Shown here: piece by piece, positions 22,236-52,343 of the stretch
Numbering within the stretch: the first letter of the stretch is position 1
Layout of the letters: each line of letters opens with the position of its first letter
Assembly (NCBI GenBank): GCA_964584985.1
Contig: CAZPBK010000001.1
Coordinates: 60,742 to 124,741 of the forward strand
Direction of reading: 5' to 3'
DNA length: 64,000 bases
Source: an uncultured Gammaproteobacteria bacterium
GTDB lineage: Bacteria > Patescibacteriota > Patescibacteriia > UBA11705 > JABHMO01
The notes under the pieces: generated by a model
Database searches by the model: none
What the model was told of the DNA's origin: nothing
Seen by the model: the letters and a program-made list of their open reading frames with translations, nothing else
Translations under genes and position numbers: made by a program

Positions 22236-22237
22236 AG

Positions 22238-26189: not shown

Positions 26190-26192
26190 AAA

Positions 26193-27518: not shown

Positions 27519-27519
27519 A

Positions 27520-29881: not shown

Positions 29882-30666
29882 TTACCATTTTCTGTAAAAA
29901 CTCCTAAATACCTATATTTAATTCCTAACTGCTTTTTTACATCAGGATCATCCTTCCCCCATTTTTTTATATATGGTTCAATAGTTGGTACATATTTACT
30001 TTTCTTATTTAAATAAACACCTAATGTTAGCCATTCCTCATGATGATAGATTTTATTTTTCGTAATACTTAATTTATTTGTTATTTCTTTTATCATTTTT
30101 GTTAAATCCCAATCATCCGGAGCAAACGGCATATTGATTTCATCAAACCCACTGACTTGTTCAAAAATATCTTTTTTAAAAACTCTCAAAGCATCAATGC
30201 AAGTTTGGTTATAAAAACTCCTTTCAAAATTTCTGATTTTCCCAAACCAACCTTTTCCCATTACGAACTCAGGAACATATAAAGCATCGAATTGTTGTAT
30301 TTTTTCGGCAATTTCTTGAAAAAGGCCCTTTTCAAAGGTCATATCCGCATCAGGAACAAATAAAATCTCACCATTTGCCTTTGATGCCCCGAAATTCACT
30401 TGTGCGCCGCGAAAGTTTTCCACATTCGTTAGCTTTTTTTCGTTTGCCAAATTATATACTTTATCAATCAAACTGCGAGCTTTTTCGCGTGTTGAATCTT
30501 TTGAATTATTGTCAACCACAATAATCTCCACTCTGTCTTTTGGATAATCAAGAGAATCAATTGAATTAATAATGTTTTTGATATTCTTTTCTTCGTTATA
30601 GGTTGCAATAATTGTTGAAATTAGAGGTAATTTATGCATAGTTGTTATCTTATTTTCTAAAATCAA
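29791..30666 (-). CDS. Glycosyltransferase family 2
   Basis: LISTIIATYNEEKNI, VEIIVVDNNSKD and DADM motifs. Confidence 0.75.
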   Translation of the reverse strand: MILENKITTMHKLPLISTIIATYNEEKNIKNIINSIDSLDYPKDRVEIIVVDNNSKDSTREKARSLIDKVYNLANEKKLTNVENFRGAQVNFGASKANGEILFVPDADMTFEKGLFQEIAEKIQQFDALYVPEFVMGKGWFGKIRNFERSFYNQTCIDALRVFKKDIFEQVSGFDEINMPFAPDDWDLTKMIKEITNKLSITKNKIYHHEEWLTLGVYLNKKSKYVPTIEPYIKKWGKDDPDVKKQLGIKYRYLGVFTENGKWKRLLSHPLLSINLFALRVVVGIKYLLNK

Positions 30667-32119
30667 TTAAATGGCCGAAAAATTTCATACTCGACCTGAA
30701 CAAATATTTTACATCATCAAGGTTTTTGATATTTATAATTTTTCGCCAAATAAATTGCGGGCTTATAAATGATTTATATAAACCTTGAGTTAATTCCTTA
30801 ACATCAGCCGTAGTTAACTCGGATTTCATGACTTGTTCCCTTTGATCGTATCTGTCATAATCAACAAAATTCAGTAATTTTTTTTCTCGGCAATATTTAT
30901 ATAAAGGCGTTCCAGGATAAGGGATAACGACCGTAGCTTGAAGTGTGTCAACATAGCCTTTTTTGAATAATCTTTTAGCCAAATCAACAGTTTTTTTAGC
31001 CTCGGCTTTACTTTCCCATGGATAGCCAATCATAGCCGTAATATGAGGCTCCAATCCTGCCTGCTTACATATTTTTAAATTCGGTTCAATTTCTTCCACC
31101 TTCAAACCTTTTTTAATTTTATCCAAAGTTTCTTGATTGGCTGATTCCAAACCAAAAAGAATAAATCTAAAACCGGCTTTTTTCATTAATTTCCAAGTTT
31201 CAATATTTTTAATTCCATTAATCCTCATGTTACAACTCAAGGTTACTTTTTTATTGAAACCATATTTAATCATTCCTCGGCAAAATTCATATAACCAGTC
31301 CCCGATTGGTAAACTTCCGGAATCTTCCATTATTTCTTTAACTCCAAGATCTATTAGTCTTTTAACTTCGCTCAGAGCTTGTTGAGCTGACATTTTTCTG
31401 AATTTTGAACCAGGGAAAAGAGTTGTCCATGAGCAAAAAGTACATTTCCCCCACCAACAATCTCTACCACTCATTAAATATGAACCTGGTGTATATTTAA
31501 AATTACCATTTTTGTAGGCATAAAGTTTCCATTCGGTCAATTGTCTGTCAATTAAGGGTAATTCTGTCAGCTTATGAGAATGAAAACCATATTCACCGGT
31601 ATTATTTATTAAACTACCTTCTCTATAATAAATTCCCTTTTCCAAACTTGTTGCCTTATCCAAGTGATTAGCAATACTTAATAACAAAAAGTCAAAATCA
31701 CCTGATTTTATTACATAATCTACTTTAGAGTTATTTAGTGATTCTTCCGGCAGAGCTGTGACATGATCTCCCATCAATACAATTTTCAACTTCCAATCTT
31801 CAGTCTTTGATGAAATCTTTTTTAATTTATTTATAATTTGCCAATGCTTTTTTATAACTGGTGTTTTGGTCTCAATCGCGACAAGTTCCGGTTTTTTTTC
31901 AACAATAAAGTCAAACCATTCTTTTTCCGATTGTTCTTTGGCAATTCCATCAGCCCAAAGAACTTCGTGACCATTATTTTTTAATAATGTTGCTGCATAG
32001 GCCGGAATAACAGGATAAATATAAGTGGGACTATTAAACCATTGGAATTGTCTATTTTGGGTAAGAAGTGGAACCCCTTTTTTTGATTCAATTGGAGGAA
32101 AACAAATAGCAACCTTCAT
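30650..32119 (-). CDS. B12-binding-domain radical SAM protein
   Basis: N-terminal cobalamin-binding-like domain. The radical-SAM cluster reads DCWWGKCTFCSW (CxxxCxxC) at ~residue 220. 489 aa. Confidence 0.75.
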   Translation of the reverse strand: MKVAICFPPIESKKGVPLLTQNRQFQWFNSPTYIYPVIPAYAATLLKNNGHEVLWADGIAKEQSEKEWFDFIVEKKPELVAIETKTPVIKKHWQIINKLKKISSKTEDWKLKIVLMGDHVTALPEESLNNSKVDYVIKSGDFDFLLLSIANHLDKATSLEKGIYYREGSLINNTGEYGFHSHKLTELPLIDRQLTEWKLYAYKNGNFKYTPGSYLMSGRDCWWGKCTFCSWTTLFPGSKFRKMSAQQALSEVKRLIDLGVKEIMEDSGSLPIGDWLYEFCRGMIKYGFNKKVTLSCNMRINGIKNIETWKLMKKAGFRFILFGLESANQETLDKIKKGLKVEEIEPNLKICKQAGLEPHITAMIGYPWESKAEAKKTVDLAKRLFKKGYVDTLQATVVIPYPGTPLYKYCREKKLLNFVDYDRYDQREQVMKSELTTADVKELTQGLYKSFISPQFIWRKIINIKNLDDVKYLFRSSMKFFGHLIDFRK

Positions 32120-32120
32120 A

Positions 32121-33092
32121 TTATCTTAATTTGCTAGTTAAATTTTTTACGCACAAACCTTTTAAAAAATTGTAGCCATAACTTAAATGAGTACCTAATA
32201 TATAGGGTACTACTCCAAAACTGATTTTCCAATCTTTTTCATATTTTCTGATTTGCCAAACAGCAATCACAAGACCAATTAGATACACTAACCAACCAAA
32301 TATATATAGATTTAAAATTAATTTTGAAATAAGACTTCCAATCAGTCCGATCACAACAAATACAAGAAATAAGCTGGGAATAAAATATTTTAATTTAAGG
32401 GATGTTTTTGGAAATTTTTTAGCAAAATAACCTCTATGCAAGCCATAAGCACCTACCTGCTTCAAATGTTTTAAAAAACCTTTTCTTCTGTGATGAAAAA
32501 CAATTAGCTCCGGATTGTATAATATTTTCTTTCCAGTATTTATTAAGTCCAGACACATTAAGGTATCTTCACCTGGCCAATATTTTGATTTGAATCCACC
32601 GATATTTTCAAAATCAACCTTTTTTACTGAGAGATTAACACTGGGCCAATCATCAACAAATTTTTTTTTACCAACTGACACATATCTTTCGGCACATCCG
32701 CCTGAAAAACCGCTCAAAAAAACTGCACCAGATAGTTTTTGGCCAAAACTATCATCTTTAGGTGTTATAGCCGGACCGGCTACAGCACCAAGGTCAGAAT
32801 TTTTAAAAGATTTATCTAACTTTTCCAAAAAATCCTCTTTTGGGTAAGCATCATCATCAATAAATATTAAAATTTCGCCTTGAGCATGATTCATAGCCAT
32901 ACTTCTCTTCATGGCCGGCCCCCCCGGACCACTTGATATTTGTTTTGTTTTTGGCCAATTTTCACTATTGCTTCGGTCCGGAAAAATTAATATTTCATAA
33001 TCACTTCTTTCAATTTTAAGAATGTTCGGAACGGCTTCCCGAATATAATTATTTATTTCCTTAACTGGAATTATAAAACTATATTTAATCAT
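32121..33092 (-). CDS. Glycosyltransferase family 2 with C-terminal transmembrane anchors
   Basis: YSFIIPVKEINNY, FIDDDAYP (DxD) and a GxGGxxxKR-like segment. The last ~90 aa form two TM helices. Confidence 0.65.
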   Translation of the reverse strand: MIKYSFIIPVKEINNYIREAVPNILKIERSDYEILIFPDRSNSENWPKTKQISSGPGGPAMKRSMAMNHAQGEILIFIDDDAYPKEDFLEKLDKSFKNSDLGAVAGPAITPKDDSFGQKLSGAVFLSGFSGGCAERYVSVGKKKFVDDWPSVNLSVKKVDFENIGGFKSKYWPGEDTLMCLDLINTGKKILYNPELIVFHHRRKGFLKHLKQVGAYGLHRGYFAKKFPKTSLKLKYFIPSLFLVFVVIGLIGSLISKLILNLYIFGWLVYLIGLVIAVWQIRKYEKDWKISFGVVPYILGTHLSYGYNFLKGLCVKNLTSKLR

Positions 33093-34389
33093 GTTTTTTT
33101 CCTATACAATAATATTTAAAACCCAATTCATTCATTTTCTTGGGGTTATGAGCATTTCTGCCATCAATAAACACATTGCCCTTCATTGATTCTTTAATTC
33201 TTTTTAAATCAATTTGTTTGAATTCATCCCAATCAGTACATAAAATAATTGAATCAACATTTTTTGCTGCTTGATAGGGACATTCAAAATAATTTATATT
33301 CGGATAGTGTTTTTGAAAATTATTTAAGGCCGCTGGGTCAAATACATTTACTTTGATCTCATGATCCAAAAGATTTTGAACTAATTCCAGTGATGGAGCA
33401 AACCTTATGTCATCAGTATTTGGTTTAAAGGATACCCCCCAAATGGCTACGGATAAATTATTAATTTCCTTATTATAAGCCTTTGATAGTTTTTGAAATA
33501 GTGCCTTTTTCATTTTATTATTCAATAATTCTACTTTTTCCAATATTTCAAAATTTTCATTATTCTGTTTACCGATATGGATCAAGGCTTGAACATCTTT
33601 GGGAAAACAAGAACCTCCATAACCACAACCAGCATCTAAAAAGGCGTTCCGACCAATTCTTTTATCAAGCTTCATTCCTTGAGAAACTTTGTTCACATCA
33701 GCCCCGGCCTTTTCACAGATATTGGCAATTGAATTAATAAAAGAAATGCTTGTAGCCAAAAAGGCGTTTGAAGCGTATTTTATCATTTCTGCACTTTTTA
33801 AATCAGTTGTAACAATCGGACAATTTAACGGCTGATATAATTTTTTCATTATACTCAACGCTTTATAGTCTTTACTATCACAACCGAGGACAACTCTATC
33901 GGAATTAAGAAAATCATCAACTGCAGTCCCTTCACGCAAAAATTCCGGATTTGAAACAACATCAAAAGAACCATTATATTGTTCTTGTATTATTTGGGTT
34001 ACTAAATCACCTGTACCGACCGGAACTGTACTTTTATTAACAATTATTGTATATTTTTTTATATTTTGACCAATACTTTTGGCAACATCTTTGATAAACG
34101 AAAGATCGCACTCTCCGTTTTCTTTTGGCGGTGTACCAACGGCAATAAAAACCATATCCACCTCATCAAAAAATGTTTGAATATTATTTTCAAAAAACAG
34201 CCTCTTTTCTTTGATGTTTTTACAAACCATTTCCTCCAATCCCGGCTCATAAATGGGAATATTCCCCTTTTGCAATAAGGCAATTTTATTTTTGTCTACA
34301 TCAATACAAGTTACATTATTGCCTAAATTCGCTAAGCATGTTCCAGTAACTAAGCCAACATAGCCTGTGCCAATTACAGCAATTTTCAT
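33085..34389 (-). CDS. ugd: UDP-glucose 6-dehydrogenase
   Basis: Rossmann motif MKIAVIGTGYVGLVTG and catalytic block GYGGSCFPKD. 434 aa. Confidence 0.9.
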   Translation of the reverse strand: MKIAVIGTGYVGLVTGTCLANLGNNVTCIDVDKNKIALLQKGNIPIYEPGLEEMVCKNIKEKRLFFENNIQTFFDEVDMVFIAVGTPPKENGECDLSFIKDVAKSIGQNIKKYTIIVNKSTVPVGTGDLVTQIIQEQYNGSFDVVSNPEFLREGTAVDDFLNSDRVVLGCDSKDYKALSIMKKLYQPLNCPIVTTDLKSAEMIKYASNAFLATSISFINSIANICEKAGADVNKVSQGMKLDKRIGRNAFLDAGCGYGGSCFPKDVQALIHIGKQNNENFEILEKVELLNNKMKKALFQKLSKAYNKEINNLSVAIWGVSFKPNTDDIRFAPSLELVQNLLDHEIKVNVFDPAALNNFQKHYPNINYFECPYQAAKNVDSIILCTDWDEFKQIDLKRIKESMKGNVFIDGRNAHNPKKMNELGFKYYCIGKKHD

Positions 34390-34395
34390 AAATTA

Positions 34396-35334
34396 TTATA
34401 TTACTTTTCTGAAATATTTTATAGTTTTTTGTAAACCTTGTTCTAGTGCTATTCCCGGTTGCCAATTTAATTTTTCCTTAGCTAAGCCGATATCTGGCTT
34501 TCTTTGTTTGGGATCGTCCTTAGGCAATTCCTTATATATAATTTGGCTAGTGGAACCGGGAACTAAATCCAATATTTTCTCTGCCAATTGTTTAATAGTA
34601 AATTCATCGGGATTTCCCAGGTTAACAGGCCCAATAAAATTATTTTTATTATTCATCATCAATAGCATACCATTTATTAAGTCATCCACATATTGGAACG
34701 CCCTGGTTTGTCCACCATCACCAAAAATTGTAATCGGTTGATTCTTTAATGCTTGAACGATAAAATTTGAAACAACTCGACCATCATTCGGATGCATATT
34801 AGGACCATAAGTATTAAAAATTCTAATAATACGAATATCAACTTTATTTGAACGATGGTAATCCATAAACAAACATTCAGCTGCTCTTTTTCCTTCATCA
34901 TAGCAGGAACGAATTCCAATAGGGTTTACATTTCCCCAATATATTTCTGATTGAGGATGAACATCAGGATCGCCATATACCTCCGATGTTGATGCTTGCA
35001 GAATTTTTGCTTTTACCCTTTTAGCTAAATCCAACATGTTAATGGCACCAGATACTGATGTTTTAATTGTTTTGATTGGATTATACTGGTAATGCACCGG
35101 GGAAGCCGGACAGGCTAGGTTATAAATTTGATCGACTTCTAATATTATAGGTTCGACAATATCGTGTCTTATAAATTCAAAATTTCTATTATTTAATAAG
35201 TCTTTTATATTATCTTTTGTTCCCGTAAAACAATTATCAAGGCAAATGACTTTATTTTTCTGTTCTAATAATTTTTTACATAAATGTGAACCTATAAAAC
35301 CCGCGCCTCCTGTTACTAAAATGGTTTTGTTCAT
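34396..35334 (-). CDS. uxs: UDP-glucuronate decarboxylase (UDP-xylose synthase family)
   Basis: [22 protein letters not shown] and CYDEGKR motifs. Collinear with UXS1/ArnA-decarboxylase-type SDR enzymes. 312 aa. Confidence 0.8.
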
Positions 35335-36287
35335 AGATTTTTTGATCTTTCTTTAATTATATACATTGGTCGATTTATTACTTCTCTTTGGATGTTCCCT
35401 ATATATAAGGCTATTAAACCGAGACAACTCAAAACTATACCAATAAAAAATATTATTAAAACAGCTAGTTGAGCCGGTCCGGAAAAGTTAAAAGACCACG
35501 CAGGATAGAGATATTGTGTTACCAGCATGAATAAACCAATCGTCCCGGAAATTAAAATTATAAAAATACCTAAATACCCCGCTAACTTAAGTGGCAATAA
35601 GCTATTAGAAACAAATGAAGACAAGGCCAGTTTAGCTAGCTTTAAATAGCTATAACCTGGTTGTCCGCTTTTTCTTGGTCGAGCTTGAAAATTAACATAA
35701 GCCTTATTAAAACCAATCCAATTCAGTAATCCTCGAGTAATTCTTTGCTTTTCAGTTAACTTGTTGAATTCTTTAATAATTTTTTTGTCTATTAAACGAA
35801 AATCAGTTGAGTGGGGTTTTATTTTTGTCTCACTGATTAAATTTATAAGTTTATAATAAAATATTGCTCCCAATTTCCTTATTAAGCTTTCTCCAACATT
35901 AGCATCTCGAACTCCAATAACCATATCATTTCCTTGTTCCCATTTATCGATGAATTTATTTATTGTTTCCGGCGGATGTTGAAGATCCGCATCTATAATA
36001 ACGGCCGCTTGTCCGTTGACATGATGCAATCCCGCACTAGTGGCGATTTCTTTACCAAAATTTCTAGAAAAAGAAATATAATTAACATTTACATCTTTCT
36101 TTGCCAATTCTTTTATAGTGGTTAAACTCGTATCCGTACTTCCGTCGTCAACAAAAATGAACTCAAAGTTTTTATTCAATTCTTTTAATTCGTTGTATAA
36201 TTCTCTTATTGTTTCCTGTTCATTATAGACAGGAATAACTATTGAAATTCTAAACATTTTTTTTATTTCTATATAAATTTGGATCAA
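35331..36287 (-). CDS. GT2 polyprenyl-phosphate glycosyltransferase (DPM1/GtrB/ArnC-like) with two C-terminal TM helices
   Basis: [23 protein letters not shown] and DADLQHPP motifs, plus a C-terminal membrane anchor. Confidence 0.75.
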
Positions 36288-36828
36288 TTACCTCCTTCAT
36301 TTTGTTGGAGTTAAGAAAAACATCAAGAAAGCTGATAATTTTATTGATATTTTCATCGGCATTAACAAAAAAATCATTGTATGAAACGCTTAAGACATCA
36401 AAATTATCTTTTTTGTTCAACCAAGCCTTAACTTCTTCTAAATGCTTTTCATACAAGGTTTTTATTTCCTTATCAGAAATGCTACTTTCTTTTTTTCTAT
36501 GAGCCAACATCTTATTTTGAGATCTTATTATTTCCTCCAAATCTCTTTCCATGAATATAACTTTATATCTGTAATTTTTGGGTAAATCATAAAGTAACAT
36601 TGAAATTATTTTCACAACCCTTCCCTTGGCTCGCTTCAACCATAATGAATCCTTTTTTGTTTTTTTTACTTTTTCAAACTCATAATACCCTTTTGGATTG
36701 TCTTTATCAGGTTTTCTAATATTGTCAACCAAAGATTTCAAACCTCCAGCTTCCAACATGTTCATCATCAAAGAGGTTCCGGACCTAGGTAGGCCGGAAA
36801 CTATAATTATCGGATTTTCATTTGACAT
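36250..36828 (-). CDS. PAPS-dependent sulfotransferase (Sulfotransfer_3-like)
   Basis: 5'-PSB motif IIIVSGLPRSGTSLMMNML. 192 aa, a small cytosolic sulfotransferase size. Context includes PAPS synthesis genes. Confidence 0.65.
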   Translation of the reverse strand: MSNENPIIIVSGLPRSGTSLMMNMLEAGGLKSLVDNIRKPDKDNPKGYYEFEKVKKTKKDSLWLKRAKGRVVKIISMLLYDLPKNYRYKVIFMERDLEEIIRSQNKMLAHRKKESSISDKEIKTLYEKHLEEVKAWLNKKDNFDVLSVSYNDFFVNADENINKIISFLDVFLNSNKMKEVIDPNLYRNKKNV

Positions 36829-38105
36829 ATATTTTTGTTAGTAATGAAAAAATGTAAAATAAGCAACAAAAGAGAAAAGACCACAGAAATCAAATATACA
36901 TTCAAAATTTGTGAAATATTGTCATGGAAGTTTAATAATAACAACACTTCCAATACTACGGAACCGACCAAAACATATGTAAAATTTGTTTTTCTTATAG
37001 ATAGAGCAAATAAAGAAATTAAATTAATAATAGAATAAACTGTAAATACTACAGCAATCTTCCATAGTAATGGTTGAATGGAAATATATTCCGCTCCCAA
37101 AATCAAATTAATAATCCTATCTGGGAACAAAAAATAAACAAGAGTAATAACTCCGGAAACAAAAGAGACTACAAGTAGGGCGATCTTGAAGACTTTAAGA
37201 TTACTGATTCTCATAATTTTATTTTTTGCAGCGATGGGAAACAAAACCACTGGGACTGAACTGGTGGCAAAAAATATTATTTTCCCAAATAAAACTAAAC
37301 CGGCATATAAACCTGCATTCTTTTGATCTAAAAAATGTTTGGCGAACAAAACATCAATGTTATATATAAAAACCAAACATAACGATACAATAAAGACCGG
37401 CTTCATATATGAAAATAAGCTTTTCCAATCAATATTTGTTTCTTCATTCTTTAAGACATCGCGCCGAGAAAACCAAGCATAGACCATTATTATAAATATC
37501 ACAGAGGCAAGAGGGATTGCAATCATTGCCCCCAATATGCCTAAACCTATTTTGACCAAAAAAACACCTATTAACAACTTTGAAAAGACCATGACTATTT
37601 GACTGAAAGATAATCTGACAAACTGTTGCAACCCTCTCATGAAACCCAATCCAACGGGCACCAGAAATGAGAACAAAAAATAACCGGACAAAACAATTAA
37701 GGGGGCTATTGAATCCAAGTTTAGCAATTTTTTTACTTGGCTGGAAAACAATAAAAATACAATTGATAAAAAAACTCCATAAAACGAAGCCTTTTTTATA
37801 ATTTGTTTTAAAAAACTAAAAATCTTGTTTTTCTGATTTTTTCCTGTTAAATCAGCAACTGTCTTTGAAACAACATGATTTATTGTTTGTGTAGGTACTG
37901 CTAAAATGAGAGTGATTGATAACAAGGCAGCCAAAAGTCCGAAATCCTCAGGGCCCAACATCCGACCCATAATTATTTGAAATAAATAATTACCAAAGCC
38001 TACAATTAAAGACCCCACAAAAACCATTAAGCTTCCGCTAAGTAACTTATTTTTTTTTATACTGGAGAGGCTTAATTCTCTAAATGAAAAATGCCGGTTA
38101 CTCAT
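36807..38105 (-). CDS. wzx: Wzx-type polysaccharide flippase (MOP superfamily)
   Basis: 432 aa with ~12 TM helices, typical of polysaccharide biosynthesis protein flippases. Confidence 0.65.
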   Translation of the reverse strand: MSNRHFSFRELSLSSIKKNKLLSGSLMVFVGSLIVGFGNYLFQIIMGRMLGPEDFGLLAALLSITLILAVPTQTINHVVSKTVADLTGKNQKNKIFSFLKQIIKKASFYGVFLSIVFLLFSSQVKKLLNLDSIAPLIVLSGYFLFSFLVPVGLGFMRGLQQFVRLSFSQIVMVFSKLLIGVFLVKIGLGILGAMIAIPLASVIFIIMVYAWFSRRDVLKNEETNIDWKSLFSYMKPVFIVSLCLVFIYNIDVLFAKHFLDQKNAGLYAGLVLFGKIIFFATSSVPVVLFPIAAKNKIMRISNLKVFKIALLVVSFVSGVITLVYFLFPDRIINLILGAEYISIQPLLWKIAVVFTVYSIINLISLFALSIRKTNFTYVLVGSVVLEVLLLLNFHDNISQILNVYLISVVFSLLLLILHFFITNKNICQMKIR

Positions 38106-38106
38106 A

Positions 38107-38895
38107 CTAAATCTTAGCTAATTCTTTAATAACATTATAATGGATTTTCCCATTACTAACAACAAAACCGTTATAATTCATGGGATCTCTTTTATTGTAA
38201 ACAATGTTATCACCAAACATATCCGTAAAAACACCACCCGCCTCTTTAACAATAATATCAGAGGCGCAAACATCCCATTCACCGGTTTTATCACTGGTAT
38301 TTAGATATAAATCACCGAATTGGTCGGCTATTTTAGCGGATTTAAGTCCGGCACTACCGCAAGTTTGCATTTTATCTATACTTAACTTTTTAGCCAGATT
38401 CATTTCCCTATCCAAAAGATGATTGCGACTACGCAATAAAATGATTTCCGAATAATCTTTTTTATCGGAAACTTGTAATTTAACGGTTTGACCGCGATGC
38501 TCCATATAAGCTCCTTGGCCGGCTGACGCCCAAAAAAGTTTATCCTCGGCCGGCTGATAAACCGCCCCCAAAACCGGACGACCATTTTGACTTAAACCGA
38601 TCATAATGGAAAATTCGCCGGTCTGCTGAATAAAATCCTTGGTTCCGTCCAAAGGATCAATTATCCAAACCTTTTCCTGATACAACCGCTTATTTTCTTT
38701 ATCGGTTTCCTCGGACAAAATACCGTAATTCAATTGTTTTAGTTTTTGCAAAATAACCTTTTCCGAAGCTAAATCAGCTTGAGTAACCGGACTGTCCCCG
38801 CCTTTATCCCGGATATTTAAATCTTGACCGTAAAATTCCATAACTTTTTTTCCGGCTTGTTTTATGGTACTCTTCAATATACTTAATTCCGACAT
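38107..38895 (-). CDS. cysQ: 3'(2'),5'-bisphosphate nucleotidase CysQ-type (inositol monophosphatase family)
   Basis: IMPase-family motifs EETDKE, WIIDPLDGTKDF and WDVCASDIIVKEAGG. Chosen as CysQ rather than SuhB from the PAPS-gene context. Confidence 0.65.
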   Translation of the reverse strand: MSELSILKSTIKQAGKKVMEFYGQDLNIRDKGGDSPVTQADLASEKVILQKLKQLNYGILSEETDKENKRLYQEKVWIIDPLDGTKDFIQQTGEFSIMIGLSQNGRPVLGAVYQPAEDKLFWASAGQGAYMEHRGQTVKLQVSDKKDYSEIILLRSRNHLLDREMNLAKKLSIDKMQTCGSAGLKSAKIADQFGDLYLNTSDKTGEWDVCASDIIVKEAGGVFTDMFGDNIVYNKRDPMNYNGFVVSNGKIHYNVIKELAKI

Positions 38896-38978
38896 ATTGA
38901 TCTACTATTAGTTGACAGATGTCTTTATTATGTTAATATTTCTAGAACAGGTTATTTTAAAAATCCACAGGAGGAAAA

Positions 38979-39401
38979 ATGAAAAACATTTTGAACAACG
39001 GAAGGTTAAGGTGTTCGGGAAGATCATGGCAATTAGTTGAAAGCGACAAGTCCTGTATTCCTGGCGGTAAAAAAAACGGTGATCATTTGATTATTCTTTT
39101 TTCAGACAAAAATAGATATTGTAGTCGCGAAGAACTGGGAGAACTCTATGTAATAGCCGAACAACTGGCTACGGAATACGCACATCAGATCAATCTTTAC
39201 CGTATTGTTAAAAACGGCAAAGGCCTGCAATTTCGTAAAGGCTTTCATCTTCATCTCATCCTTCCGAAAAAAAGAAATTTCATTGCTCGTTGTGTTGAAC
39301 CAAGCGTTTCTATGATAAAACTGAGAAAATGGCAAGGTGAGAAGGTCTTTAAGTATGTTTTGAACAAATTACTGACCAGAGGACAACAGCAAAAAAGATA
39401 A
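38979..39401 (+). CDS. Divergent HIT-superfamily-like protein (tentative)
   Basis: A strong SD sits upstream (cacaggagg-N6-ATG). A HIT-like core reads GDHLIILFSDK...YRIVKNGKGLQFRKGFHLHLILP; this is an HxHxI motif rather than HxHxH. Elevated GC. Lone plus-strand gene inside the cysQ-cysNC array. Confidence 0.35.
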   Translation: MKNILNNGRLRCSGRSWQLVESDKSCIPGGKKNGDHLIILFSDKNRYCSREELGELYVIAEQLATEYAHQINLYRIVKNGKGLQFRKGFHLHLILPKKRNFIARCVEPSVSMIKLRKWQGEKVFKYVLNKLLTRGQQQKR

Positions 39402-39457
39402 TATCTCCATCCCTTCAAAAACTTCCAACCTCAAAAAGGTGAGTCACACTCGCCTTT

Positions 39458-41269
39458 TTATTTTTGTAAAAACTTATTTTTATACAAATAATCAATAATC
39501 TGCTCCACACATTCATCAACTGTATTTTCATGAGTTTGACAACAAATATGAGGATTGTCCGGTGCTTCATATGGAGCGGAAATACCGGTAAAATTATCAA
39601 TTTCACCATTAAGAGCTTTTTTATACAAACCTTTGACATCCCGTTTAATACAAATATCCAAAGGGGCGTCAACAAAAACCTCCAAAAATTTATCAGTATG
39701 AAAAGAGGCTGTTTTCCTATGCTCTTTATAAGGTGAAATAAAAGTGGCCAAAACCAAAACATCGTGTTTGCTAAGCAAGCCGGCCACATAAGAAACTCGT
39801 TCAATATTTTTATCGCGATCCTCTTTGGAAAATCCCAAATCTCTGGTTAAAGCCTGTCGCACAATGTCACCGTCCAATCGCTCGCAACGAACCCCCATGT
39901 TTTTCAAAACCACATATAATTTATCAGCAATAGTACTTTTGCCCGATCCGGAAAGTCCGGTAAACCACATCACACCTCCTTTATTGTCTTTTACCCGGTG
40001 AATATAACCACCGGTTTCAGCATTTTTTACTTTTTTATTTATTATACCCGCACCCACGGTATTTTTACTTATTGGATCAATAATAATAAAATTTCCGGTA
40101 TGACGATTTTTTTGGTATGGATCAAAAGACAATGAATCCTGTGTGCGAATGTAAACTCGCCCCATTTCATTTAAATAAAGTTTTGATTTTTCCTCACGAT
40201 GCAAATCATCCATGTTTATTCTGTATCTTAATCTTTCCACAAAACCATTGCTCGTTCTGCTGGTGTGCTTGATAATATAATTTTTATTTTCTGCCAAAGG
40301 CTCATCGCTCATCCAACAAACAGTGGCCTCAAAATTATCTGAAACCTCAGACATATTTTGTTCTTTAACTATCATATCTCCTCGACTAATATCCAGTTCG
40401 TCCTCCAAAGAAAGCAAAGCGGACAAAGGATTAAAAGCATAATCTTGTCTGGAACCGTTAACATAAATCTCCTTTATTGAAGATTTATTATTGGCCGGTA
40501 AGATTCTGACTCGATCACCGCGCCGAATAATTCCACCCTCAATTTTTCCGGTATAACCACGGAAATCTTGATTCGGACGGACAACACTCTGCACCGGGAA
40601 ACGAAAATCAATCAAATTTCTATCAGCGGTTATTTGAATATTTTCCAAATAATCCAAAATTGTTCGTCCGTTATACCAAGGCATATTATGACCACGATCC
40701 ACCACCATATCTCCTTTAAGCGCGGAAACCGGTGTAAATTGTAAATCTTTTATATTTAGTTTGGAACAAAAATCAGAAAAATCTTGTTTAATTTTATTAA
40801 AAATCTTTTGATCATAATCCACTAAATCCATTTTATTGACTACAACCAAAACATGCGGAATACCCAAAAGAGCGGCTATGAATAAATGTCTTTTAGATTG
40901 AATAAGTAAGCCTTTTCTGGCATCACACAAAATCAAAGCCAAATTTGAGTTAGAAGCCCCGGTCATCATGTTTCTGGTATATTGTTCATGCCCCGGTACA
41001 TCGGCAATAATAAAACGCCGTTTGGGAGTGGAAAAATAACGATAAGCCACATCAATGGTTATCCCTTGTTCCCTTTCCGCTTTTAAGCCGTCCAAAAGAA
41101 AAGCCAAATCAACTTCCTTGCCCACTTTATCACAAGTTTTTTTTACTGATAAATACTGATCCTCAAAAATAGAATGACAATCATGAAGCATTCTTCCAAT
41201 CAGGGTTGATTTTCCGTCATCCACGCTCCCGGCGGTGCTTATTCTCAAAAGTTCAATATCATTTTGCAT
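39458..41269 (-). CDS. cysNC: Bifunctional sulfate adenylyltransferase subunit 1 / adenylylsulfate kinase (CysN-CysC fusion)
   Basis: N-terminal GTPase motif STAGSVDDGKSTLIGRL and DVPGHEQY. C-terminal APS kinase P-loop FTGLSGSGKSTIA and LDGD. 603 aa. Confidence 0.9.
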   Translation of the reverse strand: MQNDIELLRISTAGSVDDGKSTLIGRMLHDCHSIFEDQYLSVKKTCDKVGKEVDLAFLLDGLKAEREQGITIDVAYRYFSTPKRRFIIADVPGHEQYTRNMMTGASNSNLALILCDARKGLLIQSKRHLFIAALLGIPHVLVVVNKMDLVDYDQKIFNKIKQDFSDFCSKLNIKDLQFTPVSALKGDMVVDRGHNMPWYNGRTILDYLENIQITADRNLIDFRFPVQSVVRPNQDFRGYTGKIEGGIIRRGDRVRILPANNKSSIKEIYVNGSRQDYAFNPLSALLSLEDELDISRGDMIVKEQNMSEVSDNFEATVCWMSDEPLAENKNYIIKHTSRTSNGFVERLRYRINMDDLHREEKSKLYLNEMGRVYIRTQDSLSFDPYQKNRHTGNFIIIDPISKNTVGAGIINKKVKNAETGGYIHRVKDNKGGVMWFTGLSGSGKSTIADKLYVVLKNMGVRCERLDGDIVRQALTRDLGFSKEDRDKNIERVSYVAGLLSKHDVLVLATFISPYKEHRKTASFHTDKFLEVFVDAPLDICIKRDVKGLYKKALNGEIDNFTGISAPYEAPDNPHICCQTHENTVDECVEQIIDYLYKNKFLQK

Positions 41270-41284
41270 ATTTAAAAATCATTT

Positions 41285-42187
41285 TTAAAAATAACCGGAT
41301 TGTTTTTTATCCTCCATGGAACTATCACCACTATGATCAATTATTCTATTTTCCCTCTCGGATTTTTTAGCCAATAAAACTTCTTTTAAAATATCTTCCA
41401 CCGTGGAGGCCGAAGATTCAACCGCTCCGGTACAAGGCACACAGCCAAGGGATCTGAATCGGCACATTACTTCTCCCACTTTTTCATCTTTCTTTACCCT
41501 AGTGGATTCTTCCACCGGCACCAAAAGTCCATTTCTTCTAACCACCTTTCTTTTTTTGGCAAAATAAAGTGGTACTATTTCAATATTTTCTTCTTTAATA
41601 TAATTCCAAACATCCGACTCGGTCCAATTGGAAAGAGGAAAAACACGCATGGTTTCTTGTTTATTTAAATGCGAATTAAAATTATGCCAAAGTTCGGGGC
41701 GCTGATTTTTAGGATCCCACTTGCCCATCGAATTACGATGGGAATAAACTCGCTCTTTGGCTCTGGATTTTTCTTCATCTCGCCGAGCACCGCCTATGGC
41801 CGCATCAAATCCATGCTTTTTTATAGAGTCAAGCAAAGCTTGAGTTTTTAAATAACTACAACAAGTATCTACGCCGTGAATAGCCGGATGCAGACCTTGT
41901 TTGAATTTTTCATGCTGTTCCACAATTAATTTTACGCCTACCTTTTTAGTATAATAATCTCTAAAGTCAGTCATTTGTTTTGGTTTGTAGCCGGTATCAA
42001 TATGCATTAAAGGAAAAGGCACTTTTCCCGGATAAAAAGCTTTGCGCGCCAAATGCAATAGACAAGAAGAATCCTTGCCAACGGAATACAGCATTACCGG
42101 ATTTTTAAACTCCGCCGCCACTTCCCTAATTATGTAAATCGCCTCAGACTCTAACTCCTTTATATGCGACAATTTATAATTTTCCAT
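41285..42187 (-). CDS. cysD: Sulfate adenylyltransferase subunit 2
   Basis: PAPS-reductase-fold N-terminus [29 protein letters not shown]. 300 aa. Directly adjacent to cysNC. Confidence 0.9.
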
Positions 42188-42268
42188 AGTTTTAAATTAT
42201 TCTTCCAATCACTATATTCTTTATACATATATTCTCATATTACCAATTTCCAAACTTATTGTAAAAAC

Positions 42269-43036
42269 TTATCCACAGTTTTCTTTATTCCAATTCTTAA
42301 CAGTCTTTAATAGTAAATTTCTAACCTTGTCGACATTATTGTTCATTCTATCGACAATCAACTCCCAAGTAACGAATTTTTCATTCTTTTTCCAACAATC
42401 AAAATCAGTTACCATAGCAATTGACTGGTATGGTATTTTTAACTCATTGGCCAAAATTACTTCCGGTACAGTGGACATATTAATAACCTGGCCACCCAAT
42501 TTTTGGAACATAAGACTTTCAGCTCTGGTTGAAAACCTGGGGCCTTCAATAGTTATTGCGGTTCCATTATCATGAAATTTTAAATCCAATTCTTTAGCTG
42601 ATAATATTAATTTTTTTCTAAGTTTCCGGTCAAACGGTTCGGCCATGGGAGTATGCACCACTTTTTTTTCATGGTAAGTCAAATTTCTATGTTTGGTAAA
42701 ATCAATAAATTGGTCTAAAAAAACAAATTCTCCCGGCCTAATGTTTTCTTGCAAGCTACCACAGGCAGTCGTGGCCAAAATTGCCTGACACCCTTGATCT
42801 TTAAGTGCCTCGACATTTGCACGGTAAGGCACCATGGTTGGCATAATAGAATGATTTTTCCCGTGGCGAGGTAAAATTACCACTTCAATGTTTTTAATTT
42901 TTCCAACAATCAAATCATCCGACGGCCAACCATAAGAAGTTTTGGATTTTATTGTTTGATAATTTTCCAGTATTTGCGGATCATCCAATCCCGACCCGCC
43001 GATTATTCCGATTTTCATATTTTTTATTAATCCCAT
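42269..43036 (-). CDS. mtnP: S-methyl-5'-thioadenosine phosphorylase (purine nucleoside phosphorylase family)
   Basis: IGIIGGSGL, LPRHGKNH and TIEGPRFSTRAES motifs. Confidence 0.8.
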   Translation of the reverse strand: MGLIKNMKIGIIGGSGLDDPQILENYQTIKSKTSYGWPSDDLIVGKIKNIEVVILPRHGKNHSIMPTMVPYRANVEALKDQGCQAILATTACGSLQENIRPGEFVFLDQFIDFTKHRNLTYHEKKVVHTPMAEPFDRKLRKKLILSAKELDLKFHDNGTAITIEGPRFSTRAESLMFQKLGGQVINMSTVPEVILANELKIPYQSIAMVTDFDCWKKNEKFVTWELIVDRMNNNVDKVRNLLLKTVKNWNKENCG

Positions 43037-43554
43037 TCATAGTCATAACTGACCAAAGAATGGATATTATATTTTTTTAATCTTTCGCTTCCGCCCAAAA
43101 AGGGCAAATCAATAATTAAACTGACTCCGACCACCTCGGCTTTTAACTTTTCCACCAATTCAATGGTCGCTCCCAAGGTGCCACCGGTAGCCAAAAGATC
43201 ATCAACAATTAAAATTTTTTGCCCCGCTTTTATAGTATCTTTATGCATAGCCACACCGTCAGATCCATATTCTTTTTCATATACAGCTTCAACGGTTTTA
43301 TACGGCAATTTCCCTTTTTTTCTAACCAAGGAAACGCCCAAACCCAGTTTATAAGCAATCACCGTTCCCAACAAAAATCCACGAGCATCTATTACCGCTA
43401 TTTTATCAATTTTTGTCCCGGAAAAAGGTCTAATCATTTGATCAATAACCTGTTTAAAGGTTGGTCCGTCTTGTAAAAGAGTGGTAATATCCTTGAAATT
43501 TACACCCTTTTCAGGCCAATCGGAAACTTCCCTAATTTTAGATTTTAAATCCAT
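43027..43554 (-). CDS. apt: Adenine phosphoribosyltransferase
   Basis: PRTase motif ILIVDDLLATGGT and the Apt-type flanking sequence. 175 aa. Confidence 0.9.
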   Translation of the reverse strand: MDLKSKIREVSDWPEKGVNFKDITTLLQDGPTFKQVIDQMIRPFSGTKIDKIAVIDARGFLLGTVIAYKLGLGVSLVRKKGKLPYKTVEAVYEKEYGSDGVAMHKDTIKAGQKILIVDDLLATGGTLGATIELVEKLKAEVVGVSLIIDLPFLGGSERLKKYNIHSLVSYDYEWD

Positions 43555-43641
43555 ATTTAATAATTTTATTTTAGACTTGACATAATTACATTTTTGTGCA
43601 AATATATAATGATGCTTTAATATTTATTTAAGGAGGAAAAA

Positions 43642-44490
43642 ATGAAAACATGGGCGATCTTTAACAATGTCTTTTCAAATTATCCGGCACTTTACGCGGT
43701 GCTCAATCATGCAAAGAGTCTGGGTTCAGAAGCCTTTCTTTGTTTGGGAAATCTGGTTGGTTTCGGACCGCAACCCTTAGCCTGCCTAAAAACAGCTCAC
43801 GAAGAACATATTTTGCTAACTCAGGGACAGATGGAGTTCATGGTGGGCGCCGGCAAATTTACGCACTCTTTGGCCGATGATCAATTCACCGTTAAGGGTG
43901 CTCTGAGTAATATCAAGGAGTTGCAAGATTCCGGGCAAGAACAACGCTTAGCCTGTCACTTTCAAGAGGAAATGTACCAATTGGACAAAACAAAGATCAT
44001 AAAAATCAATGAAAAAAATGATCTGGTTATGGGGCACAGCTCCCTGAGCCCCAAACACAAGATTTGGCCGCCTCCCTGGCCGAAAATAAAAGGCAGAAAA
44101 AGCTTGGCCTCGGAGATCATCTTGGCTAAACGATCGTCAGAAAACGCCAGCTTGGTTCTTCTGGGCAACACCCGAGATGGTCTGTGGATGGATATGGAAA
44201 GAAGAAATATTCAAAACACAAGATTATTTAATGGTCGTGTCTTTATTCAAGAACCGACCTGCTTGTTGGTCAACCCGGGTTCAGTCGGCCAGTTGGACAG
44301 TGTAACCAATCTGGATGAAAACGGGTTTGGTCAAGCTTCCTATGTAACCTTGCATATTCCAGAAGAGGAAGACGAGGAAAAAAGTTGGGTCGAATTTCAT
44401 ACAGTTCGATACAACGCCATGGGATGCTTACAGACCATGAAGGAAAAAGGATTTGATCAAGACGAGATGAAATTCCTTTTCAATCTTTAA
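43642..44490 (+). CDS. Metallophosphoesterase (calcineurin-like, YfcE-like) homologue with degenerate metal-binding motifs
   Basis: Strong SD (taaggagg-N6-ATG). MPP-like blocks: CLGNLVGFGPQP (GN instead of GD) and VNPGSVGQ. The expected D-x-H and GNHE motifs are absent. Elevated GC. Confidence 0.5.
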   Translation: MKTWAIFNNVFSNYPALYAVLNHAKSLGSEAFLCLGNLVGFGPQPLACLKTAHEEHILLTQGQMEFMVGAGKFTHSLADDQFTVKGALSNIKELQDSGQEQRLACHFQEEMYQLDKTKIIKINEKNDLVMGHSSLSPKHKIWPPPWPKIKGRKSLASEIILAKRSSENASLVLLGNTRDGLWMDMERRNIQNTRLFNGRVFIQEPTCLLVNPGSVGQLDSVTNLDENGFGQASYVTLHIPEEEDEEKSWVEFHTVRYNAMGCLQTMKEKGFDQDEMKFLFNL

Positions 44491-45771: not shown

Positions 45772-46406
45772 TTAATTTTTATCTTCTTGATTTACCAAGG
45801 GAACAAAAGCAAAACCGGGAAACTCTTTTTGTTCAAACTCCTTTTCCGCTCTTTTTTTAATTAGCCATAAACTGCTTTTTACCGGACAAACCAAACAGCC
45901 GCTGATTTTTAATTGTTCCAACCAAAATTCAGGTATTTGTTCTCCGGCGGCTGCGACAATAATTTTATCGTAGGGCGCGAATTCAGACAATCCTTTGCCG
46001 GCGTCAGTGCAAATAAATTTTACTCGCTGATATAGTTTTTTATATTTTTTTAAATTACTTTGACCGGATCTTTTTAATTGCTTAATCCTTTCCATCGCCA
46101 AAACTTGACCGTTTTTTCCCGCTAATTCGGCCAAAAGTCCGGTTTGCCAACCGCTACCGAACCTATCTCAAAAACTTTATCGCCATTTTTGACTTGTAAT
46201 TTTTCCAACATAAAAGCCACAGTGGCCGGCTGGGATATGGTTTGTCCCCGGCCAATGGGCAGCGGACGATTTTCATAAGCTTCACCTTTGTATTCCGGCG
46301 TAACAAAATCTTTTCTGTCCACTTTTTCAAAAACGTGAATAATCTCTTTGGACTGCAAATAGCCTGTATCAATTAATTGTTCAATCAATAAATGCATAAA
46401 AATCAT
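45772..46406 (-). pseudogene. pcm: Protein-L-isoaspartate O-methyltransferase (pcm) interrupted by a single-base (-1) frameshift
   Basis: ORF 46122..46406 encodes the Pcm N-terminus up to VFEIGS. ORF 45772..46134 encodes the remainder (AELAGKNGQVLAMERI...). Reading ggttcgg(g)tagcggttgg around 46147..46163 restores EIGSGSGWQTGLLAELAG. Confidence 0.7.
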
Positions 46407-47538
46407 TAAAAAAATTTTCCTCGGTAAACTCTTTGGCTTTTTTTAAACAATTTTCAGAAAACTCATTGAATTTTTGATCAATTAAATCTTCGGCTTTTGA
46501 AAATTTATAATAAAGATCCTTTTTATTTCCGGGGAAAAAGGTAAAACCGGTTTCTCCCGATTCAATCAATTCGCTAATTCCGCCAATTTTTGCGCCGATA
46601 ACCGGCACTCCGTTTTGATAAGCCAAAGGAATTACCGTAGGCGAATTTTCATAGCACAAGCTGGGGATTAATAAAAAATCAACTTTTTGAAAATTTTTTT
46701 CTAATTCCGATCCATGTTTTCGTCCCAAAATCTTAATGTTTTTTTGATCTTTTGGTTTTAAATTTCCCGAGCCCACAATAAGTAACTCACTATCAATTTC
46801 ATTTTCTTGCCAAAAATTAATCAACCAATCAAGGCCTTTGTGCTTTTCCCATTGCCCGATAAACAAATAACGCTTATTTTTACTTTTTTTCGGCTCAGAT
46901 TTTATTTTTCCGGACACCGGATTGTTTATTATTTTAATTTGAGAATTCGGGAAAAAGCCCTTTTCAGTGTAAAAGTCGGCCAACCAAACTGAAGGGGAAA
47001 TTACTTTTTCCGGCGAGCCAAAAGTCTTTTTGCATAATCTCTCATATTTTCTTATCGGCCAACCTTGAACCATAAAACTCTTTTCTTTTCCTTTAATTAA
47101 TAAACCGGAAGGCACGGAAAGCTGGACATCATGCAGATAATGAAAGTGTTTTATGCCCAAATCCCTGATCACTTTCGGTACTCGCAAACTCAATCCTTTT
47201 AAATTATGTGTAATTATTAAATCCGGTTTTTCTTTTTGTAAAATTTTTTTCACTGTTTTAGCGGCAAAAAAATTAAACAAATCAAAAATATGCCAAAAAA
47301 TCCTAATAAAAAACGGCCACTTATGGTCGTTTATATAATAAAATATATTCAAAGGCTTAAATCGATAAATTCTAATCCCAGCTTCAATTTTCTGTTTTAA
47401 ACCACTTTTTGGCTTGGTTGATATAACCAAAACATCTTCACCGCGTGCTTTTAGCCCTTCAGCCATAGTCTTAACTACATTTTCCGCTCCGCCGCGAGTA
47501 TAAGGTTCGTACAAATTACTGATTAAACAAATCTTCAT
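46381..47538 (-). CDS. Glycosyltransferase family 1 (GT4-like)
   Basis: N-terminal MKICLISNLYEPYTRGGAE and a C-terminal GT-B E...E motif region (IPSLCYENSPTVIPLAYQNGVPVI). Confidence 0.75.
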   Translation of the reverse strand: MKICLISNLYEPYTRGGAENVVKTMAEGLKARGEDVLVISTKPKSGLKQKIEAGIRIYRFKPLNIFYYINDHKWPFFIRIFWHIFDLFNFFAAKTVKKILQKEKPDLIITHNLKGLSLRVPKVIRDLGIKHFHYLHDVQLSVPSGLLIKGKEKSFMVQGWPIRKYERLCKKTFGSPEKVISPSVWLADFYTEKGFFPNSQIKIINNPVSGKIKSEPKKSKNKRYLFIGQWEKHKGLDWLINFWQENEIDSELLIVGSGNLKPKDQKNIKILGRKHGSELEKNFQKVDFLLIPSLCYENSPTVIPLAYQNGVPVIGAKIGGISELIESGETGFTFFPGNKKDLYYKFSKAEDLIDQKFNEFSENCLKKAKEFTEENFFNDFYAFID

Positions 47539-47544
47539 GGCTTA

Positions 47545-51329: not shown

Positions 51330-51332
51330 AAA

Positions 51333-51677: not shown

Positions 51678-51679
51678 AG

Positions 51680-52342: not shown

Positions 52343-52343
52343 A

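Follow-up and report, generated by a model that had tools for sequence, protein, structure and literature searches.

A predicted PAPS-supplied sulfation module in a glycan locus of a Patescibacteria (CPR) bacterium

Sulfate activation genes and their predicted use

For what purpose does a bacterium of the Patescibacteria (Candidate Phyla Radiation, CPR) make 3'-phosphoadenosine 5'-phosphosulfate (PAPS) beside its glycan genes? The question is raised by a 64,000-nucleotide (nt) stretch of DNA (contig CAZPBK010000001.1 of assembly GCA_964584985.1, positions 60,742 to 124,741; the whole stretch is called the window below, and all positions are counted from its first letter), in which cysD, a cysN-cysC fusion (cysNC), a CysQ-type phosphatase gene, a flippase gene and a small sulfotransferase gene lie close together. 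CPR bacteria are tiny episymbionts, and their cell surface is the interface with the host cell. A sulfated and strongly anionic surface glycan, if true, would give this CPR-host interface a concrete property that is open to testing, and the keeping of the costly PAPS pathway in a biosynthesis-poor lineage suggests that the pathway matters to the lineage. The answer that we favour, with slightly more confidence than doubt, is that the genes form a dedicated sulfation module, supplied with PAPS, for a surface glycoconjugate containing glucuronic acid (GlcA) and xylose; it is drawn from the identities of the genes and the folds of their products, from the packing of the operon and from synteny with other loci.

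According to the proposed scheme, CysD and the CysN/CysC fusion would convert sulfate, adenosine triphosphate (ATP) and guanosine triphosphate (GTP) to PAPS, and a sulfotransferase of 192 amino acids (aa) would move the sulfate to a saccharide built from the uridine diphosphate (UDP)-GlcA and UDP-xylose of the operon. Most likely, the acceptor would be a sugar or oligosaccharide linked to polyprenyl, on the cytoplasmic side of the membrane. The lipid-linked product would be carried outward by the flippase and attached to a surface acceptor by a GT-C glycosyltransferase, and the CysQ-type phosphatase would convert the inhibitory by-product 3'-phosphoadenosine 5'-phosphate (PAP) to adenosine monophosphate (AMP). 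A protein of the histidine-triad (HIT) fold probably acts as a valve, for control or for salvage, on adenosine 5'-phosphosulfate (APS) or a related adenylyl conjugate, and sulfatase-like proteins with a threonine nucleophile, the usual partners of the sulfotransferase, probably have a part in this sulfation as well. The HIT-fold gene, the two sulfatase-like genes and the synthesis of UDP-GlcA and UDP-xylose had been overlooked in the original prediction, an earlier reading of the window from its letters and open reading frames (ORFs).

That reading had named the five genes given above; all five ORFs were located exactly where it placed them, on the minus strand, and family and profile searches agreed with each identity. 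Identical proteins, in the same locus, were independently assembled in at least six samples (L001-L006). The ATP sulfurylase small subunit gene cysD (41285-42187) scored 450.8 bits with NF003587 (cutoff 195) and 442.1 bits with TIGR02039 (cutoff 396.6); the curated cutoffs for the PP-loop ATP-pyrophosphatase domain were exceeded and the PP-loop SVGKDS is present in the translation. The cysNC gene (39458-41269), encoding the ATP sulfurylase GTPase subunit fused to APS kinase, scored 804.4 bits with NF004035 (cutoff 715) and carries the Pfam GTP_EFTU and APS_kinase domains. When CysNC sequences were aligned, the window sequence included, the GTPase motifs and the kinase P-loop were invariant (G14-T22, D90-H94, N145-D148 and G438-K444). 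The product of the third gene (38107-38895), a 3'(2'),5'-bisphosphate nucleotidase (PAP phosphatase), matched Inositol_P (192.8 bits) and has the inositol monophosphatase fold; its best subfamily was TIGR01331 (CysQ; 196.5 bits, under the equivalog cutoff of 228.8), ahead of HisN (135 bits) and SuhB-type (79 bits) models. Its top match in the PDB was 3b8b, deposited as 'CysQ' and presumably from Bacteroides thetaiotaomicron. The flippase (36807-38105) belongs to the MOP superfamily (Wzx/PST type; Polysacc_synt 44.5 bits and Polysacc_synt_3 44.3 bits, both above gathering scores), and a crude scan of hydropathy gave it 14 hydrophobic segments. The small cytoplasmic sulfotransferase (36250-36828) carries PRSGTS at residues 14-19, and its predicted PAPS-type family was upheld in hidden Markov model (HMM) searches, with 42.8 bits for Sulfotransfer_3 and 38.8 bits for Sulfotransfer_1, both above gathering scores.

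The five genes had also been described as a co-directional array. Their coordinates and common strand stood, but the array is interrupted: the 562-bp gap between cysNC and cysQ contains a plus-strand gene (38979-39401), which encodes the HIT-fold protein.

PAPS as a probable sulfate donor in CPR loci

The genes of reductive sulfate assimilation, predicted to be missing from the window, were indeed absent: no cysH, no sulfite reductase gene (cysI) and no cysK was found on any scanned ORF of at least 100 aa in the 64 kb. When the cysH of a Magasanikbacteria relative (L093) was used as the query, cysD was the sole match in the window. Because these genes are absent and because CysQ and a sulfotransferase are encoded in the adjoining operon, PAPS most likely serves here as a sulfate donor. 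The same use had been proposed from the start, and it gained support from the sulfotransferase neighbours of related loci, compared as follows.

Named relatives of the window CysNC (54-59% identity) were all from CPR bacteria, namely Peregrinibacteria, Andersenbacteria, Magasanikbacteria, Falkowbacteria, Paceibacteria and 'Patescibacteria group', and unnamed metagenome matches reached 66%. By these sequence relationships, the fusion is a member of a CPR-wide clade. The CPR sample consisted of the window and eight further loci of this clade (n = 9), with features counted within 10 kb of cysD-cysNC, and the comparison set of 37 CysNC-fusion loci that are more distant and similar in length. When metagenomes were scanned with the CPR CysNC alignment, all matches were fusions at 42-53% identity; these served for comparison and not as CPR relatives.

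Eight of the nine CPR loci were embedded among glycan genes. Sulfotransferases (192 to 320 aa; Pfam Sulfotransfer_1, _2 or _3) were found at 6/9 CPR loci versus 2/37 distant loci (Fisher p = 2e-4), a comparison biased by the CPR origin of most of the sulfotransferase queries; glycosyltransferase types were found at 5/9 versus 0/37 (Fisher p = 9e-5). CysQ-like phosphatases were present at 5/9 CPR loci and 13/37 others, MOP flippases at three or four CPR loci, and cysH at one (L093). The comparison shows that the PAPS module in glycan loci is recurrent across CPR rather than rare.

At the closest relative (L175), the order of adenine phosphoribosyltransferase (APRT) and methylthioadenosine (MTA) phosphorylase genes, cysD, cysNC, an opposite-strand HIT-like gene and cysQ is kept but the sulfotransferase is a different one (281 aa), which supports the role of PAPS as a donor. 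Other CPR loci have a comparable glycan setting with unrelated sulfotransferases. The simplest reading is a conserved donor module that serves a variable glycan chemistry.

Three further kinds of neighbour were recorded at these and other loci. A small DUF2061 membrane protein is encoded directly beside PAPS genes in L009 (10722-11024), L010 (2405-2707), L092 (8874-9089), L175 (8876-9136) and L176 (11917-12126), and an Rrf2 regulator with a TauE-family permease stands directly beside them in L094 (12443-13192) and L177 (14136-14885). DUF2061, or Rrf2 with TauE, are candidates for sulfate-uptake or regulatory parts of the module; no published link between DUF2061 and sulfate was found, and searches of the window with CPR-locus proteins as queries detected no DUF2061, TauE, cysH or additional sulfotransferase. 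The APRT and MTA phosphorylase genes lie directly upstream of cysD in the window (42269-43554, minus strand), in L175 (3528-5244) and in L001 (945-2230). This synteny of purine salvage with an AMP-producing pathway may be a coincidence.

Glycan synthesis genes

From cysQ, a 15-gene array runs from 38895 down to 23811 on the minus strand, with neighbouring genes overlapping or at most 10 nt apart. The sulfotransferase gene overlaps the flippase gene by 22 nt and, by 8 nt, the gene of a family 2 glycosyltransferase (GT2) of the polyprenyl-phosphate type (35331-36257; GtrB/ArnC/PgfS type). This GT2 scored 123.7 bits with Glycos_transf_2, and 229.6 and 145 bits with PgfS and ArnC models, both below their equivalog cutoffs; it has two C-terminal transmembrane (TM) segments (residues 229-247 and 264-282), and gene calls begin at the ATG at 36257. 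It is followed by a UDP-glucuronate decarboxylase (UDP-xylose synthase; 34396-35334; 411 bits to human UXS1, 4gll and 2b69) and a UDP-glucose 6-dehydrogenase (33085-34389; TIGR03026 460.8 bits, above cutoff; TuaD 539.5 bits, below the cutoff of 700). Since both of these enzymes are encoded in the operon, the locus is predicted to make UDP-GlcA and UDP-xylose; it would also have parts of a polyprenyl-phosphate-sugar pathway.

The array continues with a second GT2 (32121-33092; Glycos_transf_2), a B12-binding radical S-adenosylmethionine (SAM) enzyme (30650-32119; HpnJ-like, with Radical_SAM and B12-binding domains; HpnJ 172.9 bits, below cutoff), a third GT2 (29791-30639; Glycos_transf_2 77 bits; start according to the gene calls), an FkbM-type methyltransferase (29048-29794; Methyltransf_21) and a class I SAM methyltransferase (28356-29051; Methyltransf_11 and Methyltransf_25). 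Two alkaline-phosphatase-superfamily ('sulfatase-like') proteins come next, one of 279 aa (27520-28359; Sulfatase 25.5 bits, borderline) and one of 441 aa, cytoplasmic (26193-27518; Sulfatase 120.3 bits). The final gene of the tight array encodes a GT-C glycosyltransferase (23811-26189; AftD-like, GT-C_AftD 40.5 bits, 15 hydrophobic segments). The glycan-locus setting that had been proposed was therefore borne out, by the UDP-glucose dehydrogenase, the UDP-xylose synthase, the GT2 enzymes, the methyltransferases and the GT-C.

Just after the GT-C gene and two membrane ORFs of no known family (21885-23488), a 541-aa protein with about 10 hydrophobic segments is encoded (20257-21882, minus strand). 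It matched the NCBIfam model 'MmpA family trehalose lipid delivery protein' at 136.9 bits (cutoff 210).

The GtrA/GtrB/GtrC, ArnC/ArnT and PgfS/PgfM systems are likewise made up of a flippase, a GT-C and a GT2 that ends in two TM helices. The window differs in that its flippase is of the MOP family and not a small GtrA or ArnE/F, and in the sub-equivalog PgfS and ArnC scores. To our knowledge, sulfation is not a feature of any of these systems.

The GC content is 0.27-0.325 from the flippase downward, versus 0.367 for cysD-cysNC and 0.34-0.39 for cysD-cysNC with its flanks (positions 20001-38000 versus 38001-44000). Low GC, together with the lack of a close CPR relative of the small sulfotransferase, is consistent with a glycan part that was horizontally acquired and PAPS genes that were resident. 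A one-off horizontal acquisition of the PAPS module was also considered and was rejected for cysNC, all of whose named close relatives are CPR.

Characterised sulfation clusters

The original prediction had presented sulfated surface glycans as a rare chemistry. This did not hold, given the recurrence of the PAPS module across CPR and the occurrence of the same architecture in Cobetia marina and Vibrio. The capsule cluster of C. marina KMM 1449 carries a cysN/cysC fusion, cysD, cysQ, a sulfate permease gene and a sulfotransferase gene, and its product is a Rha2S-containing polysaccharide whose sulfation was chemically shown (PMC11766843). In Vibrio sp. KMM 8419, second copies of cysC, cysN and cysD and three sulfotransferase genes were found in the capsule cluster, and PAPS genes with sulfotransferases in a polysaccharide cluster were called a hallmark of sulfated polysaccharide synthesis (PMC11641403). 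As in these clusters, PAPS synthesis genes, CysQ and a sulfotransferase are found inside a glycan cluster in the window. The two known clusters belong to Gammaproteobacteria, export through an ABC transporter (Kps), include a sulfate permease in the module and use rhamnose/mannose, whereas the CPR window has a MOP flippase, a polyprenyl-phosphate GT2, a GT-C, GlcA/xylose precursors and no detected transporter. The window, whose sulfated product is a predicted one, adds the HIT-fold gene and the sulfatase-like partners.

No papers linking CPR/Patescibacteria to sulfotransferases or to PAPS use were found in a literature search. The core architecture is thus known from marine Gammaproteobacteria and is not reported for the CPR lineage.

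Family of the small sulfotransferase

The window enzyme belongs to a family of about 190 aa with at least 7,899 database matches, distributed over at least 598 species genomes of Chloroflexota, Planctomycetota, Desulfobacterota, Myxococcota, Nitrospirota, Acidobacteriota and some archaea. No characterised member was found. GLPRSGTS was invariant in 33 aligned family sequences; it is a 5'-phosphosulfate-binding loop without the Walker-A lysine, and the single such motif in the whole window. R95, E99 and S103 were also invariant, with the spacing expected after a beta strand, and form a putative 3'-phosphate-binding motif. The protein has the sulfotransferase fold, and tyrosylprotein sulfotransferases were its best structural matches.

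At five loci of distant genomes (L009, L010, L032, L063 and L088), the small sulfotransferase gene lies between those of a Sat-type ATP sulfurylase and a standalone APS kinase. This is the same coupling achieved with non-orthologous enzymes, and such neighbourhoods support the predicted dependence on PAPS in vivo. Other members stand directly beside nucleoside diphosphate (NDP)-sugar dehydrogenases or epimerases (L007, L021, L090), and in most genomes neither PAPS-forming nor NDP-sugar genes are found near the small sulfotransferase.

None of the best 80 relatives of the window sulfotransferase was from CPR, and identity to the window protein was 45-57%. With all named relatives outside CPR and at most 57% identical, a horizontal acquisition of this gene is plausible.

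Alternative uses of PAPS and alternative acceptors

Several observations weigh against a dedicated glycan sulfation module, in addition to the query bias and the sub-cutoff CysQ score given above. No sulfate transporter was detected in the window, and no scanned ORF of the window matched Bac_transf or Glycos_transf_4, the families of priming phosphoglycosyl transferases. As for Wzx/Wzy-pathway partners, the sole Wzy_C-type protein (11576-13099) is encoded about 24 kb away, outside the operon. The remaining observations concern transcription, a CPR relative with cysH, the scope of the inspection and the conservation of the sulfotransferase; they are set out below with the alternatives on which they bear.

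With regard to transcription, a promoter-like site lies upstream of the HIT-like gene (38912-38939, plus strand; TTGACA-16-TAATAT with a TG extension, 10/12 matches, a consensus match only), and a terminator-like bidirectional hairpin with a 12-pair stem and flanking A-run and T-run is found at the cysNC stop (39433-39459). Given these two elements and the opposite-strand gene, cysD-cysNC is probably transcribed separately from the run of genes from cysQ to the GT-C. One alternative is that cysD-cysNC serves the ordinary assimilatory reduction of sulfate; cysH, sir and cysK would then lie in other parts of the genome, and the proximity of the glycan operon would be coincidental. The inspected scope was one 64-kb window on a contig of at least 157 kb, and a true cysH is indeed found in the Magasanikbacteria relative (L093, 8388-9056; 176 bits, cutoff 154), directly upstream of cysD-cysNC and beside nonulosonic-acid genes; some CPR may reduce PAPS as well, and, because of this locus, the CPR CysNC clade is not exclusively donor-making. 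Even so, we consider the assimilatory explanation very improbable. It is opposed by the lack of reductive genes in the window, by CysQ and the sulfotransferase immediately downstream of cysD-cysNC, and by the CPR clade, in which cysH is adjacent at one locus and sulfotransferases are adjacent at six. CPR genomes are generally poor in biosynthetic capacity, and their general lack of amino-acid biosynthesis was also counted against it.

The acceptor raises a further alternative: the module would supply a donor as proposed but the sulfate would be given to a small metabolite, a lipid or a protein tyrosine, with the position in a glycan locus incidental or due to co-transfer. Across many bacterial phyla and some archaea, members of the sulfotransferase family share about 50% identity, and a block of residues that we take to be the acceptor side (D35, R38, D41, N44, P45, G47, Y48, E50, E52 and K55) is invariant throughout. 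Conservation of this presumed acceptor side across phyla suggests a single acceptor shared by the family, not a glycan peculiar to one locus. NDP-sugar genes are close by in only a minority of the family, and most of 80 reference loci have no glycan genes nearby; the resemblance to tyrosylprotein sulfotransferases points in the same direction. Precedent is given by B. thetaiotaomicron BT_0411-BT_0416, in which PAPS synthesis genes and a transporter are clustered with a cholesterol sulfotransferase (PMC9417993). There, PAPS is likewise made for donation, but the acceptor is cholesterol, the sulfotransferase is a different one and the cluster lies outside any glycan locus; a PAPS module alone therefore does not identify the acceptor.

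Against a non-glycan acceptor stand the overlaps of the sulfotransferase gene with the flippase and polyprenyl-phosphate GT2 genes within a 15-gene glycan operon, the family members that adjoin NDP-sugar dehydrogenases or epimerases, and the unrelated sulfotransferases in the same glycan context at other CPR loci. We regard such an acceptor as unlikely. For the window enzyme, a glycan acceptor is inferred from operon position only, that is from the 22-nt and 8-nt overlaps. The claim of a sulfated lipid-linked glycan exported by Wzx is accordingly kept in part: the glycan context stands, but the acceptor and the export are inferred, no priming phosphoglycosyl transferase is encoded in the window and the sulfotransferase family lies mostly outside glycan loci.

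Sulfatase-like proteins

Unsupervised clustering of neighbouring proteins identified alkaline-phosphatase-superfamily proteins as the commonest companions of the small sulfotransferase. They form two subfamilies, one of about 620-640 aa (Phosphodiest type, PF01663) and one of about 510 aa (Sulfatase type, PF00884). With subfamily HMMs, a partner was found within 5 kb in 24/78 sulfotransferase-anchored loci versus 0/59 CysNC-anchored controls (p = 3e-7), and at 5-10 kb in 3/58 of the same sulfotransferase-anchored loci, a near-versus-far contrast that is inflated since the HMMs were built from near neighbours. In the 24 pairs, which came from at least eight phyla, 20 partners were co-oriented with the sulfotransferase and 10 were less than 300 nt away. 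The 441-aa protein of the window scored 148 bits with a Sulfatase-type partner HMM built without it. Among the CPR loci, the window locus is the only one with a partner and also the only one with a small sulfotransferase.

The 279-aa and 441-aa proteins share the metal-binding motifs DA.R.D and T/SDHGE. In the 441-aa protein, T-P-Y-S-L was aligned to the formylglycine motif S-Q-P-S-R of BT1596, and threonine occupied the nucleophile position in 10/10 aligned full-length partner members, none of which had C/S-x-P-x-R. No signal peptide or TM segment was found in the 441-aa protein. No anaerobic sulfatase-maturating enzyme (anSME) or formylglycine-generating enzyme (FGE) is encoded nearby; the radical-SAM/SPASM ORF at 47545-48525 matched W_rSAM_matur best (140.6 bits, cutoff 380). 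A role of the 441-aa protein as a genuine desulfating sulfatase was ruled out, because of the threonine in place of the formylglycine Cys/Ser, the missing Pro and Arg of the motif and the lack of an anSME.

Several partner proteins carry W-T-x-P-S-H-A-S-L-F-T-G, which we take to resemble the active-site motif of nucleotide pyrophosphatases/phosphodiesterases (NPP). Some have twin-arginine translocation (Tat) signal peptides; others, the window copy included, have none.

These partners raise the alternative of a two-step relay, in which the small sulfotransferase would charge a carrier or a partner enzyme and the sulfatase-like proteins (26193-28359) would transfer the sulfate to hexuronate or xylose. 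The association with the small sulfotransferase, mostly co-oriented and spread over phyla, speaks for it, as do the match of the 441-aa protein to the partner HMM and the nucleophile position, by which the partners are not formylglycine sulfatases; a hydrolytic sulfatase in the cytoplasm, where the window copy is placed, would create a futile cycle. A parallel is offered by Halobacterium salinarum, in which the sulfatase-like proteins Agl30 (membrane-associated) and Agl31 (soluble) are required for sulfating the iduronic acid (IdoA)/GlcA of a dolichol-phosphate-linked N-glycan; both confer sulfation on Haloferax volcanii, and the paper names no donor or mechanism (PMC11980604). In both cases, a glycosylation cluster is concerned with a hexuronic acid on a lipid-linked glycan: the window has two adjacent alkaline-phosphatase-like genes, UDP-GlcA synthesis and a predicted lipid-linked pathway. 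In addition, the closest structure to Agl30, BT1596, is also a top PDB sequence match of the 441-aa protein. Unlike the window, the Agl30/Agl31 cluster is archaeal and has no reported PAPS-type sulfotransferase or PAPS genes, and the parallel is suggestive, linked only by the shared superfamily and by BT1596 as a shared structural relative.

Overall we give little credence to the relay. No biochemical precedent was found for sulfo-transfer by an alkaline-phosphatase-superfamily enzyme with a threonine nucleophile, the near-versus-far contrast is inflated as described, and in the window the sulfotransferase and its partner are 8 kb apart. Instead of relaying sulfate, the partners could cleave PAPS, APS or PAP as phosphodiesterases, or could decorate the same glycan as phospho-transferases. 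If true, a relay with sulfatase-like enzymes would supply the donor logic for Agl30/Agl31-type sulfotransferases, and a sulfotransferase family of at least 598 species with a conserved sulfatase- or phosphodiesterase-like partner may bear on the question of donor and mechanism in Halobacterium.

HIT-fold protein

The plus-strand gene between cysNC and cysQ (38979-39401) encodes a 140-aa protein that gave no match in Pfam and NCBIfam scans. It is 35% identical (E 1e-13) to an ORF at the same position and orientation in the closest CPR relative (L175, 11912-12418, minus strand), and an exhaustive homology search returned 26 representatives. The family consensus ends with NGPGL..R.HFHIHIILP, a histidine-triad motif in which H90 and H92 are invariant; the first histidine of the triad, present in the consensus as HFHIHII, is a glycine in the window copy. 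When the family profile was searched against the PDB, 20/22 matches were HIT-named proteins with the motifs aligned (HinT, E 8.8e-4), and the HIT fold is thereby assigned to the 140-aa protein, as a divergent member of a new family without a Pfam model.

The association with PAPS genes recurs. The nearest homologue of the 140-aa protein is divergently paired with a CysQ-like gene on two more contigs (L179, 1512-1850; L180, 1059-1397), and a weaker HIT-like member follows cysNC and a sulfotransferase gene in L177 (12944-13543). Members of about 110-170 aa have a divergent CysQ neighbour, or stand inside a PAPS module, in at least four CPR-type lineages.

The HIT enzymes Fhit, Hint4 and DcpS hydrolyse or phosphorolyse APS, and PAPS is not used by Fhit in the ammonolysis reaction (PMC4613722). 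By analogy, the window protein is a candidate hydrolase or phosphorylase of APS or of an adenylyl conjugate, and control of APS or a related adenylyl conjugate by this protein is a reasonable guess. It resembles the APS-cleaving HIT enzymes in its fold and in the H-x-H of the triad but differs from them in the lack of a Pfam HIT match and in the glycine at the first triad position. A Pfam-less HIT-fold family linked to CysQ points to an unrecognised step in the control of APS/PAPS.

In its widest form, the proposal would have sulfated glycans widespread in CPR through the combined action of a lineage-wide cysD-cysNC, an obligate pair or relay of sulfotransferase and sulfatase-like proteins, and a CysQ-paired HIT-fold APS valve. 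That all of these hold together is doubtful.

Other features of the window

Three tRNAs were the only RNA features of the window. A WecG/TagA-family glycosyltransferase fused to a NUDIX hydrolase domain is encoded at 468-1664 (minus strand), and we know of no earlier sighting of such a fusion. The parts of an AmmeMemoRadiSam system are scattered over 15 kb, at 2317-3204 (plus strand), 7417-8205 (plus strand) and 16642-17196 (minus strand); they comprise a radical-SAM enzyme (TIGR04337, 275 bits), a Memo/LigB protein and AMMECR1. A second glycan locus (46381-56594, minus strand) contains genes for family 4 glycosyltransferases (GT4), the radical-SAM/SPASM protein mentioned above (not an anSME), GT2 enzymes, a DUF2304 protein, an NDP-sugar dehydratase/epimerase and a PMT_2/STT3-like GT-C (54894-56594).

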